DNA of 19,638 nt from a virus. Lineage: Duplodnaviria; Heunggongvirae; Uroviricota; Caudoviricetes. The notes beneath the pieces are model-generated. The model did not search any database, was not told the DNA's origin, and saw only the letters and a program-made list of their open reading frames with translations. The stretch lies in the IMG/VR virus record IMGVR_UViG_2778261223_000002; one strand, 5' to 3'. Below are positions 3,755 through 5,458 of the stretch, in pieces. The stretch's first letter is position 1; each line of letters opens with the position of its first letter. Both the position numbers and the translations under genes were made by a program.

Positions 3755-4180
3755 ATGTTTGGTATTTTCAAAAAGAAAACCCGCAAGGCCATTACTGAAG
3801 TAAAGAAAATGGAGAACCGCGATGCGGTGGAGGCGACCGTCTGGGGTGCGTATTCCATTGCTTTTGCTGACGGCACCTGTGATGCGAAAGAAATCGCAGT
3901 GCTGGAGAAAACCATTGCAGCGCTTCCTGCCTTTGCGCCGTTCTCCGGTGAGATTGCACAAATGAGTGCAAATATCCGCGCCCGTTATGAAGCGTCACCG
4001 CGTTCTGCCAATGCCGAAGCCCTTCGTCAGCTGGCTGATGTTGCCGGTACCGATGACGCAGTGAATGTGCTGTGCCTGTGTCTGGATATCGCAGACCAGG
4101 ACGGCATTGCTCCGGAGGAAGAAGCGCAACTCAAGAAAATTGCACAGGCGCTTCAGCTTCCACTGGAGCAGTATCTGTGA
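3755..4180 (+). CDS. TerB-like (tellurite-resistance TerB family) domain protein, first gene of the lysis module; tentative
   Basis: 141 aa, RBS AAGGA upstream; two repeated helical ADG...E motifs (AFADGTCDAKEIAVLEKTIAAL and DIADQDGIAPEEEAQLKKIAQAL) typical of TerB domains; no TM segments. Confidence 0.45.
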   Translation: MFGIFKKKTRKAITEVKKMENRDAVEATVWGAYSIAFADGTCDAKEIAVLEKTIAALPAFAPFSGEIAQMSANIRARYEASPRSANAEALRQLADVAGTDDAVNVLCLCLDIADQDGIAPEEEAQLKKIAQALQLPLEQYL

Positions 4181-4329
4181 AAAGTGCGCGCCCTGTACTG
4201 GCTGCCATCCTGCTGTTTCTGGTAGTGGTGGTGGATTTCACCGGACGACTGATGTCGGTGCTGGCAGATGGTGTGCTGGTGGCGATGGCGCTGGTCGTCC
4301 TCCTGCCTTTACTGCGCAAATCTGAATAA
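4177..4329 (+). CDS. Small two-TM membrane protein (about 50 aa), possible holin or antiholin component
   Basis: GTG start overlapping the upstream TGA (translational coupling), GGAG 9 nt upstream; product VKSARPVLAAILLFLVVVVDFTGRLMSVLADGVLVAMALVVLLPLLRKSE is strongly hydrophobic. Not in the ORF track as a separate entry (lies in the 3' part of ORF 4072..4329). Confidence 0.4.
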   Translation: MKSARPVLAAILLFLVVVVDFTGRLMSVLADGVLVAMALVVLLPLLRKSE

Positions 4330-4420
4330 CACCACACAAAAGGCATCTGCGGGTGCCTTTGACGGGGTGTTGTTTTTTACGGGTCGCTGGTGGCCCTTTT
4401 TTATTTACAGGAGAAAAAGT

Positions 4421-4813
4421 ATGTCTGAACCCTTATCCGGTTCCGGCACGGCTGCGGCGCTCGGTGGAGCGACAGTATTCGGGCTGTTTACCGGAACGGA
4501 TTTCGGGATTGTGTTTGGTGCGTTCGCCGGGGCGTTATTTGTGGCAACGATGCCGCAGGCACTTTCAGCCTGGCGTGTGGCGGCGCATTTTCTGGTGTCG
4601 TTCATTATCGGCGTGCTGGGCGCAGAGGTTCTGGCATCCTGGCTGGTAAAGCATACAGGGTTTGACGGTGCACCCGTCGACGCACTGTGTGCAGTGCTGG
4701 TGTCAGTGGTGTCGGTGAAGATTCTCTCGTTCATCCACCAGCAGGATATTGCATCGCTGGTGTCCGGTATGTTCTCCCGCCTGCGGGGTGGAGGAGGCGG
4801 CAATGTTAAGTAA
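4421..4813 (+). CDS. Multi-TM membrane protein, putative holin
   Basis: ATG at 4421 with AGGAG 8 nt upstream (inside track ORF 4268..4813); 131 aa with 3-4 Gly/Ala-rich hydrophobic segments and a charged C-terminus; sits upstream of the endolysin. Confidence 0.5.
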   Translation: MSEPLSGSGTAAALGGATVFGLFTGTDFGIVFGAFAGALFVATMPQALSAWRVAAHFLVSFIIGVLGAEVLASWLVKHTGFDGAPVDALCAVLVSVVSVKILSFIHQQDIASLVSGMFSRLRGGGGGNVK

Positions 4814-5078
4814 CCTTCCCGGATTGCTGAATGTGGCGTTATGCACGGTTATCGTGCTGGCGCTCTTTTTTTATCGTCGCCGTGATTCCAGACATAAACC
4901 GCTGATGTCATGGCTGGCCTGGCTGCTGATGCTGCTGTATGCCTTTGCGCCCCTCAGCTATCTGTGTGGTCGCCCGTTAGCAACGGGCTGGCTGGAAGTG
5001 TTTTTTAATCTGCTGTTCTGCGTGCTGGTGATACGCGCACGCGGGAACGTCACAAAAATCTTTCCATTGTTGAGGTGA
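4803..5078 (+). CDS. Small membrane protein (92 aa), putative holin or antiholin partner
   Basis: ATG at 4803 preceded by GGAGGAGG and overlapping the upstream stop (internal Met of track ORF 4749..5078); 2-3 predicted TM segments. Confidence 0.45.
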   Translation: MLSNLPGLLNVALCTVIVLALFFYRRRDSRHKPLMSWLAWLLMLLYAFAPLSYLCGRPLATGWLEVFFNLLFCVLVIRARGNVTKIFPLLR

Positions 5079-5080
5079 AT

Positions 5081-5458
5081 ATGTCGGGTAAATTCAGATT
5101 CAGTCGTCGGAGCGAGAAAAATCTGGAGGGCGTTAAACCACAGCTGGTTGCTGTCGTTCGCCGTGCGCTGGAGCTGACGGAGGTTGATTTCGGTATTACG
5201 GAAGGCCTGCGCACGAAAGAACGCCAGAAACAGCTGGTTGCAGAAGGCAAGAGCCAGACCATGAACAGCCGCCACCTGACCGGTGATGCGGTGGATGTTG
5301 TGGCCTGGGTTGGCAGCCAGGTGTCATGGGACTGGCCTCTGTACGAGAAAATCGCGCAGGCATTTAAGCAGGCTGCCGCAGAGCTGGGAACTGCCATCGA
5401 ATGGGGCGGGGAGTGGACCAGCCTGAAAGACGGACCGCATTTTCAGTTGAGGCGATAA
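5081..5458 (+). CDS. Endolysin, M15-family metallopeptidase (L-alanyl-D-glutamate peptidase type)
   Basis: About 125 aa, RBS GAGGTG; zinc-ligand-like motifs SRHLTGDAVD and DGPHFQL characteristic of Peptidase_M15 endolysins (T5 Lys-like). Confidence 0.8.
   Translation: MSGKFRFSRRSEKNLEGVKPQLVAVVRRALELTEVDFGITEGLRTKERQKQLVAEGKSQTMNSRHLTGDAVDVVAWVGSQVSWDWPLYEKIAQAFKQAAAELGTAIEWGGEWTSLKDGPHFQLRR

Follow-up and report, generated by a model that had tools for sequence, protein, structure and literature searches.

A probable tciAB accessory pair beside a phiP27-type lysis cassette without its usual lipoprotein gene in an E. coli prophage

Introduction

Two phage genomes supply the names for the genes considered here: phiP27 for the lysis cassette and P1 for tciAB. 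In phiP27, two holin genes and an endolysin gene (L28, L29 and L30) follow stx2e and precede a gene for a 51-aa lipoprotein, which is the phiP27 o-spanin according to Kongari et al. 2018. In P1, tciABC lie among tRNA genes in the C1-controlled ban operon, distant from the lysis genes, and tciA, tciB and tciC are nonessential by CRISPRi (PMC10695390), the phage forming plaques without the pair. The P1 tciA name is based on homology only, and our literature searches found no experimental paper on TciA or TciB and no functional study of DUF3927, the family of the second gene, or of the holin families PF05449 and PF16931.

In lambda (S-R-Rz/Rz1) and the P2-like phage P88, the endolysin gene is followed by a bona fide i-spanin and o-spanin, and in lambda a convergent inserted gene, bor, comes after the lysis genes. 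The M15 L-Ala-D-Glu endopeptidases include the T5 endolysin EndoT5 and Serratia marcescens ChiX, the latter encoded in a chromosomal secretion operon, ChiWXYZ (type 10 secretion), which also contains the spanin-like ChiY and ChiZ.

Here we analyze a 19,638-nt stretch of viral DNA (IMG/VR record IMGVR_UViG_2778261223_000002; hereafter the window), in which positions 3755–5458 had been read in a preliminary description as a single atypical five-gene lysis module with no Rz/Rz1. We consider it likely that this region consists of two known, adjoining units of an E. coli prophage, the first a portable tciAB accessory pair and the second the common phiP27-type lysis cassette minus its usual lipoprotein gene. 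The region is ordinary and was largely annotated already; the same five genes, 98.8% identical, are named in RefSeq genomes.

Results

Gene content of the region

The five open reading frames lie on the plus strand where the preliminary description had placed them (Table 1), with corrected lengths for gene 3 (130 rather than 131 aa) and gene 4 (91 rather than 92 aa). Its TerB and M15 calls are upheld by family HMM searches, which assign the three membrane proteins to DUF3927 and two holin families; Pfam bit scores were judged against the curated cut-offs, PHROG E-values for the five genes range from 1e-23 to 1e-74, and the matches go far beyond what chance would give; NCBIfam gave no model for genes 1–4, and an Rfam scan of positions 1–7200 returned three tRNAs only.

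Table 1. Features of the five-gene region and its right flank, in window coordinates
Feature	Position	Strand	Description
tciA-like gene (gene 1)	3755–4180	+	141 aa, soluble, all-helical TerB-family protein
tciB-like gene (gene 2)	4177–4329	+	GTG start, 50 aa, DUF3927, two hydrophobic segments
Tandem terminator-like hairpins	4326–4405	+	Two, each with a T-run; folding, consensus scan, conservation
Holin 1 (gene 3)	4421–4813	+	ATG 4421, 130 aa, 3–4 hydrophobic segments, basic Gly-rich C-terminus, Phage_holin_8
Holin 2 (gene 4)	4803–5078	+	91 aa, 3 TM, Phage_holin_3_7, 11-nt overlap with holin 1
M15 L-alanyl-D-glutamate endopeptidase endolysin (gene 5)	5081–5458	+	Soluble, 125 aa from ATG 5081; alternative GTG 5075
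Low-GC replacement segment	5494–6306	.	Alignment, GC
PmrG/Ais-like LPS core heptose(II)-phosphate phosphatase	5530–6123	-	Convergent inserted gene

The tciAB pair and its terminators

The tciA-like product has no hydrophobic segment by hydropathy and matches TerB (PF05099) in two stretches (31.3 bits, cut-off 24.4), which bears out its earlier reading as a soluble TerB-like protein; it also matches phrog_632 (E=2.6e-64). Its fold is all-helical, TerB-like and two-repeat, with TerB-like structures recovered by fold comparison only: PDB sequence searches with TciA and with a TciA profile gave nothing meaningful, the similarity to solved TerB-family structures being undetectable in this way. The protein is 85% identical to P1 TciA, with which it shares its length and TerB Pfam membership. 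It likewise shares the Pfam family and the all-helical, two-repeat fold with the TerB of terZABCDE, but it lacks TerC, TerD, TerZ or TerA neighbours; the gene is flanked instead by tRNAs, DUF3927 and holin genes, and its partner is the 50-aa peptide.

That partner, whose GTG start and the tciA stop overlap in the letters GTGA, is the two-TM peptide originally described, with two hydrophobic segments and matches to PF13064 (52.1 bits, cut-off 25) and to phrog_1470, 'TciB-like' (E=5e-23). P1 likewise has a coupled DUF3927 gene for a small two-TM peptide after tciA, and the same order recurs in Fostie, PPyecE_EH1910 and Pollock; in one case, P0051, there is a natural in-frame TciA-TciB fusion. 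The P1 pair differs in being accompanied by tciC, which has no equivalent in the window, and in its place in the ban operon, whereas the window pair lies in a Q-dependent late operon just before the holin genes.

The 91 nt between tciB and holin 1 contain both terminator-like hairpins. The segment that holds them has a fold energy of -32.8 kcal/mol (z = -2.8 relative to shuffles), with the second hairpin located at 4381–4396 by a consensus scan, and it is conserved in relatives, where it travels with tciAB even when the type of lysis cassette differs. From these sequence features, the tandem hairpins would close off the tciAB unit on its 3' side, insulating the holin genes. The translational coupling proposed for the region therefore holds in part: the overlaps at 4177–4180 and 4803–4813 are present, but genes 2 and 3 are uncoupled, separated by this spacer.

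tciAB and the lysis cassette occur apart

The phiP27-type cassette (genes 3–5) occurs in 304 of the 5,426 complete E. coli genomes searched, and the tciB–holin 1 junction in only 160 of these 304. The ETEC1738 prophage, 99.5% identical to the window, keeps the cassette and retains of tciB only the last ~12 nt together with the terminators; phiP27 carries stx2e in the tciAB slot, with a ~95-nt 3' remnant of tciB; and an Stx2k phage has the lysis cassette with tciAB absent. Of 66 IMG/VR loci that extend far enough downstream, 54 have holin 1 next after tciAB. Among the other 12, one shows a different pattern and nine, for which the downstream ORFs could be assessed, have an S21-like holin: in six of these a SAR-type endolysin and an Rz/Rz1 pair accompany it, in one it is joined by an endolysin plus an Rz1-like lipoprotein, and two end or show the holin only. 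The pair also lies among early genes in the N4-like phage Pollock, and TciA/TciB are spread over 100 phage records that include P1-like, N4-like, jumbo and lambdoid phages.

These distributions bear on the view that the region is a single integrated lysis module of five genes in which TciA and TciB regulate lysis, perhaps as a timer of the antiholin-like or PMF-buffering kind that acts on the two holins. The genes do share a strand and a late transcription unit, TciB is a small two-TM peptide as many antiholins are, tciAB stands immediately upstream of the holin genes in every lambdoid context seen, and the tciAB-holin 1-holin 2 block is conserved in divergent E. coli and Klebsiella phages, persisting at only 40–50% holin identity (Fostie, Klebsiella phage 1 LV-2017). 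We nevertheless regard an integrated module as improbable, given that tciAB also precedes S21-type pinholin cassettes, that it occurs in P1 and the N4-like phage with no neighbouring lysis genes, that phiP27, the Stx2k phage and ETEC1738 keep the cassette without it, that it is dispensable in P1 and that a pair of terminator hairpins stands between it and holin 1. The persistent synteny upstream of the holins leaves room for a functional link to lysis timing.

Measured against the usual features of a moron, tciAB is present or absent between otherwise adjacent genes, leaving remnants behind, and has its own terminator. A promoter scan upstream of tciA found no sigma-70-like site and the GC content of the pair, 0.54, equals that of the backbone, so that two classic hallmarks of inserted cargo are missing. 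A PADLOC scan of the five proteins and two neighbours returned no defence-family match and thus lends a defence role no support.

We therefore favour a separable pair and picture unit 1 (3755–4405) as a portable accessory cassette homologous to P1 tciA-tciB and closed by the tandem terminators, which would occupy the cargo position that follows Q/tRNAs and precedes the holin genes, the one that holds Shiga toxin genes in phiP27 and the Stx2k phage. A cytoplasmic TerB-fold TciA would be coupled to TciB, most likely its inner-membrane anchor. The pair, presumably not required for lysis, is in lytic-cycle transcription units in every context seen, and our best guess is that it may provide an envelope/membrane-stress or exclusion function during the lytic cycle.

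The holin and endolysin genes

Both holin genes encode small proteins with TMDs, a charged C-terminus and a holin HMM match, and lie directly upstream of the endolysin gene. Holin 1, whose ATG has GGAG 7 nt upstream, matches PF16931 at 79.7 bits (cut-off 26.4) and phrog_198, 'holin', at E=1.4e-42; holin 2 matches PF05449 at 77.3 bits (cut-off 25.4) and phrog_217, 'holin', at E=3.8e-38. The basic TM1-TM2 loop and basic C-terminus of holin 2 suggest a class-I-like N-out/C-in topology. In relatives it is always paired with holin 1, whichever endolysin comes next (SerU-LTIIb, Fostie, the Klebsiella phage).

Gene 5 is an M15 peptidase endolysin, as first read, by its matches to PF13539 (45.8 bits, cut-off 25), to phrog_465 (E=9.5e-74) and, in PDB sequence searches, to 23ri/8q2g (E~1e-44), ChiX (5opz, E=1.2e-41) and the T5 endolysin (2mxz, E=1e-22), as well as by its conserved Zn-ligand motifs, SRHLTGDAVD and DGPHF. 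The ATG is likely its start rather than the GTG, because GAGG lies 7 nt upstream and relatives carry the 125-aa form in RefSeq. No signal or SAR segment was found in the protein, the maximum 17-residue hydropathy being 0.86.

Over holin 1, holin 2 and the M15 gene the window is 93% identical to phiP27 in nucleotides, and the gene overlaps and the terminator region upstream are shared as well; the differences lie outside, with stx2e in place of tciAB and the lipoprotein gene downstream where the window has an inserted phosphatase gene. The cassette shares with lambda and P88 the three-step logic and the position after Q, and its endolysin gene is ~78% identical (nucleotide) to that of P88, but it has two separate holin-family genes rather than one dual-start gene and no spanin pair after the endolysin. 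In unit 2 (4421–5458), the two co-translated holin-family proteins would permeabilize the inner membrane, perhaps as a two-component holin or a holin/antiholin pair, a role that deletion of the holin 1 homologue described below supports indirectly, and release a ChiX/T5-like M15 L-Ala-D-Glu endopeptidase that would cut peptidoglycan.

A phosphatase insert replaces the lipoprotein segment

The convergent gene noted after the endolysin is present and encodes a phosphatase by its match to NF011945 (NCBIfam; 205 bits, cut-off 142), with a further match to PF00300 (E=8e-5). It lies in a segment that replaces the 37-aa TM protein, the 51-aa lipoprotein and the phrog_1935 gene of relatives: in an alignment to the IrN prophage, homology ends at about 5493 and resumes at about 6307, and GC falls to 0.358 in the segment (0.36–0.37 in the phosphatase insert) from 0.54–0.56 in the flanks. 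The window has a mosaic make-up: on the left it is 99.4–99.6% identical to two IMG/VR contigs (L014, L015) up to 5450, and on the right it matches ETEC1738, with which the endolysin–phosphatase junction, present in 28 of the 5,426 genomes, is 100% identical. None of the complete E. coli genomes and IMG/VR loci that we searched has the exact combination of tciAB, cassette and phosphatase without the lipoprotein.

In the relatives phiP27, ETEC4090, pPE4, the Stx2k phage and IrN the 51-aa lipoprotein gene follows the endolysin gene, as it does, directly, in 51 of 51 IMG/VR cassettes with enough sequence; 255 genomes have this M15-to-lipoprotein junction, compared with the 28 that have M15-to-phosphatase. 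Fostie and the Klebsiella phage have Rz/Rz1 at the lipoprotein position. The lipoprotein is often unannotated and has no obvious inner-membrane partner. We rejected the i-spanin ORF that Kongari et al. assign in phiP27 (20348–20542) as a sign of a two-component spanin of the canonical kind; it overlaps a more convincing minus-strand ORF and is not conserved in relatives with the lipoprotein directly after the endolysin.

The reported absence of Rz/Rz1 stands up within the 19.6-kb window; the rest of the prophage lies outside it and might hold a distant spanin. When every start in all six frames of the window was scanned for a lipobox, just two ORFs came up, both implausible: one lies in a non-coding spacer and the other inside a tail gene; the former (3052–3312) was rejected as Cys-rich, with no PHROG match and in a terminator-rich spacer. 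A tblastn search with the relatives' lipoprotein found no trace in the window, no ORF after the endolysin encodes an N-terminal TMD with a periplasmic domain, and small and alternative-frame ORFs gave no spanin match in PHROG, a search in which the P88 DUF2570 protein, our positive control, matched phrog_214, 'Rz-like spanin'. Two alternative-frame ORFs considered as candidates, 5283–5426 inside the endolysin gene and 4910–5008 inside the holin genes, have no lipobox, TMD or family match. A related full prophage (L005) has no spanin either.

The alignments point to spanin absence as a secondary loss, through replacement of the lipoprotein segment by the phosphatase insert, and not as something built into the cassette; the low-GC insert would have arrived by recombination at the endolysin gene's 3' end. 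The relatives' 51-aa lipoprotein probably serves the outer-membrane step, and the window copy, with no recognizable outer-membrane disruptor, would be expected to lyse inefficiently, giving spherical cells under non-shearing, high-Mg conditions.

The cassette might instead not be spanin-deficient at all, if holin 2, holin 1, the DUF3927 protein or the endolysin gave a spanin-independent route across the outer membrane. In favour of this, an identifiable spanin is missing from about 13% of the phages that infect Gram-negative bacteria (PMC6139136), 28 complete genomes retain the M15-to-phosphatase arrangement, and two holin-family genes are one above the minimum. Close relatives, however, nearly always keep the lipoprotein or Rz/Rz1, which suggests that an outer-membrane component is normally needed; all three membrane proteins are without a periplasmic domain or cationic amphipathic tail; and the ETEC1738 prophage, which has the same arrangement, carries a frameshifted tail gene and so may be decaying. 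We judge such a route improbable, and continue to favour secondary loss.

A release system for proteins rather than virions seems to us very unlikely. Under this proposal, the genes would serve mainly as a holin/endopeptidase system, like the type 10 secretion of Serratia ChiWX, for host or prophage cargo. The close homology of the endolysin to ChiX fits it, as do the toxin genes (stx2e, stx2k, LT-IIb) that flank the cassette in relatives and the missing outer-membrane disruptor, which could favour non-lytic release; moreover, the 130-aa holin 1 homologue WP_032083190 promotes Stx2e release in porcine STEC, its deletion abolishing enrofloxacin-induced release (PMC12571312). The window, though, contains no cargo toxin, and the genes hold the canonical lysis position in a prophage whose Q, terminase, portal, capsid and tail genes are of normal size; ChiX, by comparison, belongs to a chromosomal secretion operon.

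Discussion

The reading of this region as a single atypical lysis module is not supported by comparison with relatives, since tciAB is separable, with its own terminators, occurs in other lysis and non-lysis contexts, is absent from near-identical cassettes and is nonessential in P1. The preliminary description had offered a choice between a divergent lysis set and an accessory membrane module; the accessory option suits genes 1 and 2, while genes 3–5 are an ordinary phiP27-type cassette of which hundreds of genomes already carry an annotation. The arrangement is best pictured as two independent units that would have come to lie next to each other in a lambdoid prophage of E. coli, within its Q-dependent late operon.

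A more ambitious proposal, to which we give little credence, would make TciA/TciB a membrane-anchored lytic-cycle TerB module whose position before the holins is functional, possibly stabilizing membrane energization or excluding pore-formers or superinfecting phage and so keeping holin triggering timely; separately, the phiP27-type cassette would breach the outer membrane by means of a 30-residue mature lipoprotein without a canonical i-spanin.

The interest left over lies in the role of TciA/TciB, which are noteworthy as widespread proteins encoded in highly expressed lytic units, and in how this copy of the cassette crosses the outer membrane. If the proposed loss is real, the window holds a naturally outer-membrane-defective lysis cassette, and natural lipoprotein-less copies of this kind may serve as a comparison for the outer-membrane step and for the release of Stx2e and LT-II toxins in porcine E. 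coli.

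Organization of the five genes and their surroundings

The preliminary description read this part of the prophage as a single atypical five-gene lysis module, and we find that its gene-level observations are borne out. ORF reading of the window returns the five plus-strand genes, simple hydropathy analysis concurs with their assignment as soluble or membrane proteins, and all five products exceed the curated Pfam thresholds for TerB, DUF3927, Phage_holin_8, Phage_holin_3_7 and Peptidase_M15_4, with strong PHROG matches for each; the TerB, holin and M15 identities thus hold. Gene 5 most likely starts at ATG 5081 and not at GTG 5075, and RefSeq uses the 125-aa form in relatives. 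Translational coupling was claimed more broadly than the sequence allows: it holds for genes 1 and 2, where the GTG start sits within the GTGA ending gene 1 (4177), and for genes 3 and 4, which overlap by 11 nt, but not for genes 2 and 3, which are separated by a 91-nt spacer that can fold into two hairpins with a T-run after each. GGAG lies 7 nt 5' of the gene 3 ATG. The convergent gene 3' of the endolysin is also present, and encodes a PmrG/Ais-like LPS core heptose(II)-phosphate phosphatase.

Coordinates of the five genes, the RusA and Q genes and the lipoprotein gene of relatives (window positions unless a comparison locus is named)
Feature	Location	Strand	Characteristics
Gene 1, TerB (tciA-like)	3755-4180	+	141 aa, soluble by hydropathy
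Gene 2, DUF3927 (tciB-like)	GTG 4177-4329	+	50 aa, two hydrophobic segments
Gene 3, Phage_holin_8 (holin 1)	ATG 4421-4813	+	130 aa, three to four hydrophobic segments
Gene 4, Phage_holin_3_7 (holin 2)	4803-5078	+	91 aa, three hydrophobic segments
Gene 5, Peptidase_M15_4 (endolysin)	ATG 5081 (likely start)-5458	+	125 aa, soluble
RusA and antiterminator Q	408-1082		
51-aa lipoprotein gene, locus L002	7002-7157		
51-aa lipoprotein gene, locus L001 (phiP27)	5735-5890		
51-aa lipoprotein gene, locus L003	6644-6799		
51-aa lipoprotein gene, locus L007	5209-5364		
51-aa lipoprotein gene, locus L009	6965-7120		

The window represents late-region DNA from a lambdoid E. coli prophage. Q is followed by an AraC/YdeO-like gene, three tRNAs and a spacer rich in terminators; the five genes and the phosphatase gene come next, and then the small terminase (DUF1441), large terminase, head and tail genes. 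By analogy with lambdoid biology, one Q-antiterminated late transcription unit would extend from Q onward. The AraC-family gene (1608-2321, between Q and the tRNA cluster) is similar to YdeO/GadX acid-resistance regulators and matches phrog_1450, with every NCBIfam score below cut-off. The 1.1 kb at 2659-3754 holds no convincing gene, has terminator-like hairpins at 3020, 3218 and 3411, and includes a tRNA-Val (3303-3384) called by ARAGORN but not confirmed by Rfam; over 2400-6600 there are 15 terminator-like sites, against 5.3 +/- 2.4 expected. Upstream of the terminase region lies a 36-nt imperfect palindrome, CATTACAGCAGTCCTTCAGTGAGGGGCTGCGATAAT (6240-6275), which also occurs directly 5' of the phiP27 HNH endonuclease gene (L001 ~6360-6400) and as a diverged copy in the IrN prophage, and which may mark a module boundary or relate to cos.

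Genes 3-5 and the phiP27-type lysis cassette

Genes 3-5 share 93% identity with phiP27 L28-L30 and 98.8% with annotated copies in porcine ETEC genomes, which on sequence grounds makes them a phiP27-type lysis cassette. The holin pair is the constant element and the endolysin varies, being M15 in the window and other enzymes in SerU-LTIIb, Fostie, Klebsiella phage 1 LV-2017 and 10 IMG/VR loci. By hydropathy, holin 2 has a class-I layout of three TMs, in which the loop between TM1 and TM2 is strongly basic and the C-terminus is also basic. In holin 1 the N-terminal segments are rich in Gly and Ala, and the tail is basic and rich in Gly. Deletion of the gene for WP_032083190, a 130-aa holin 1 homologue, abolished enrofloxacin-induced Stx2e release in two porcine STEC strains, and its addition to unresponsive strains increased release (PMC12571312); one knockout primer from that study differs from the window just 5' of holin 1 at 3 of 53 aligned bases. 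The endolysin is close to solved M15 L-Ala-D-Glu endopeptidases (23ri, 8q2g, ChiX 5opz, E=1e-41, and T5 endolysin 2mxz, E=1e-22) with its Zn-ligand motifs intact, and, since it is soluble and carries no export signal, it would need a large-hole holin.

Spanin loss at a recombination joint

The reported absence of Rz/Rz1 spanins is confirmed: a lipobox scan across all frames of the window yields no credible lipoprotein ORF, and we find no i-spanin-like ORF and no spanin-family match among its small ORFs, in a search whose positive control, the P88 DUF2570 protein, matched Rz-like spanin families. Nor were spanins found in the complete related ETEC1738 prophage. Relatives carry a conserved 51-aa lipoprotein, MPRTAAKWALVAILVPFFLVGC... 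(phrog_7528; lipobox LVGC, two further Cys in a 30-residue mature part), shortly 3' of the endolysin in phiP27, ETEC4090, pPE4, Stx2k phage and IrN, and its gene is missing from the window. It is present in all 51 IMG/VR cassettes with enough sequence, regardless of endolysin type, and 255 complete E. coli genomes contain the M15-to-lipoprotein junction, often with the lipoprotein gene unannotated. In phiP27 it has been assigned as the o-spanin (20706-20861; Kongari et al. 2018). At the same position Fostie and the Klebsiella phage carry Rz/Rz1, which supports reading it as the cassette's outer-membrane slot.

Many lipoprotein copies leave no adjacent space for an i-spanin. The i-spanin proposed for phiP27 (Kongari et al., L001 5377-5571) has a TTG start, overlaps a 90-aa minus-strand ORF (5361-5633) that looks more like a protein, and is not conserved; the assignment looks doubtful, given that ETEC4090-type prophages have no counterpart. 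ORFs at L009 6823-6936 and L007 5007-5180 may be candidates for a non-canonical inner-membrane partner.

The IrN prophage shares the window's terminase and head module, and in an alignment of the two, homology runs to ~5493 and resumes at ~6307; between these blocks IrN encodes a 37-aa protein, the lipoprotein and a phrog_1935 gene, and the window has a ~0.8-kb segment (5494-6306, GC 0.36) encoding the convergent phosphatase. That protein has an N-terminal hydrophobic segment, and its gene is a possible lysogenic-conversion gene acting on LPS charge. Positions 1-5450 are 99.4-99.6% identical to the IMG/VR viral contigs L014 and L015, where similarity ends at 5450, and ETEC4090 matches 3500-5450 at 98.8% identity. 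For the right part the match is ETEC1738, with 100% identity over 5250-5750. Because its two parts match different relatives, the window is recombinant, judged by these alignments, and the two parts meet at the 3' end of the endolysin gene. Just 28 complete E. coli genomes have the M15-to-phosphatase junction, and none of the complete E. coli genomes or IMG/VR loci searched has the exact combination. Since relatives keep the lipoprotein, the phosphatase segment replaces it here and the junction is rare, the lack of spanins arose secondarily, by loss in a minority lineage, and is not built into the design of an unusual module. Going by what is reportedly seen with spanin-null lambda (Berry et al. 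2012), we expect that the window's cassette would destroy the inner membrane and peptidoglycan, with lysis delayed or shear-dependent.

tciAB as an exchangeable accessory unit

The gene 1 product is 85% identical to P1 TciA, and gene 2 matches the PHROG family named for P1 TciB. The pair occurs in varied contexts. In P1, tciA-tciB-tciC belongs to the ban operon, which C1 controls, and lies among tRNA genes at a distance from the lysis genes; all three are nonessential in a genome-wide CRISPRi screen (PMC10695390); N4-like phage Pollock has TciA and a coupled 53-aa gene among early genes, and in PPyecE_EH1910 a sialate esterase gene comes next after the pair. Of the IMG/VR loci with a close TciA homologue, 66 extend at least 1.5 kb downstream of it, and in 54 of these holin 1 follows tciAB. 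Downstream ORFs were read in nine of the other 12, and an S21-like holin is first in each: six also have a SAR-type endolysin and an Rz/Rz1 pair, one has a holin, endolysin and Rz1-like lipoprotein, and two end early or show just a holin. One of the 12 has a different pattern. The terminator region stays joined to tciB in the IMG/VR loci inspected.

The ETEC1738 prophage, 99.5% identical to the window over 2581-19561, retains just the final ~12 nt of tciB plus hairpins (L005 ~16440-16460). In phiP27, stx2e occupies the tciAB slot, and a ~95-nt frameshifted 3' tciB remnant persists with hairpins downstream of stxB2e (L001 ~4001-4095); in Stx2k phage the slot holds stx2k. The remnants imply that, as read from sequence, an ancestral tciAB was displaced by stx2e and other cargo. 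Of 5,426 complete E. coli genomes, 304 have the cassette (at least 80% coverage) and 160 the tciB-holin1 junction. Toxin operons lie on either flank of the holin pair in relatives (L008 5219-6368, L001 2531-3766, L007 548-1788), LT-IIb of SerU-LTIIb (L008) being downstream in the lipoprotein/phosphatase slot; both flanks are cargo hot spots.

A less likely reading is that tciAB tunes holin triggering; its backbone-like GC, the lack of a detected promoter of its own and the tciA-tciB-holin1-holin2 order kept in Fostie and the Klebsiella phage, though their holins are just 40-50% identical, would be consistent with this. From the varied contexts, absence from a near-identical prophage, cargo swaps and P1 nonessentiality, we conclude that tciAB does not belong to the lysis machinery and that, with its terminators, it forms an accessory cassette that can be exchanged and that occupies the classic cargo slot 5' of the lysis genes. 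The single-module interpretation is thus unsupported; of the two options it offered, an embedded accessory module fits genes 1-2, and genes 3-5 are a known cassette.

No Ter operon genes are seen around gene 1, and genes 1-2 match no defence-system model. A lone natural in-frame TciA::TciB fusion, the 196-aa protein P0051 (PF05099 + PF13064), may be genuine or may come from misassembly; a genuine fusion would support a TciA-TciB complex at the membrane. Together with the invariable gene coupling, it suggests that TciB anchors TciA at the inner membrane. Because tciAB lies in lytically expressed units in all the contexts seen (late operon in the window, the ban operon under C1 repression in P1, early region in N4-like phages), we favour a role in the lytic cycle, concerned with the envelope, membrane stress or exclusion, over one in lysogenic conversion.

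Both units are thus of known kinds and already annotated, and the five-gene observation stands as two separable units. The remaining interest lies in the TciA/TciB pair, which is widespread, with 100 phage records from very different phage groups, and in the small lipoprotein that normally completes the phiP27-type cassette.
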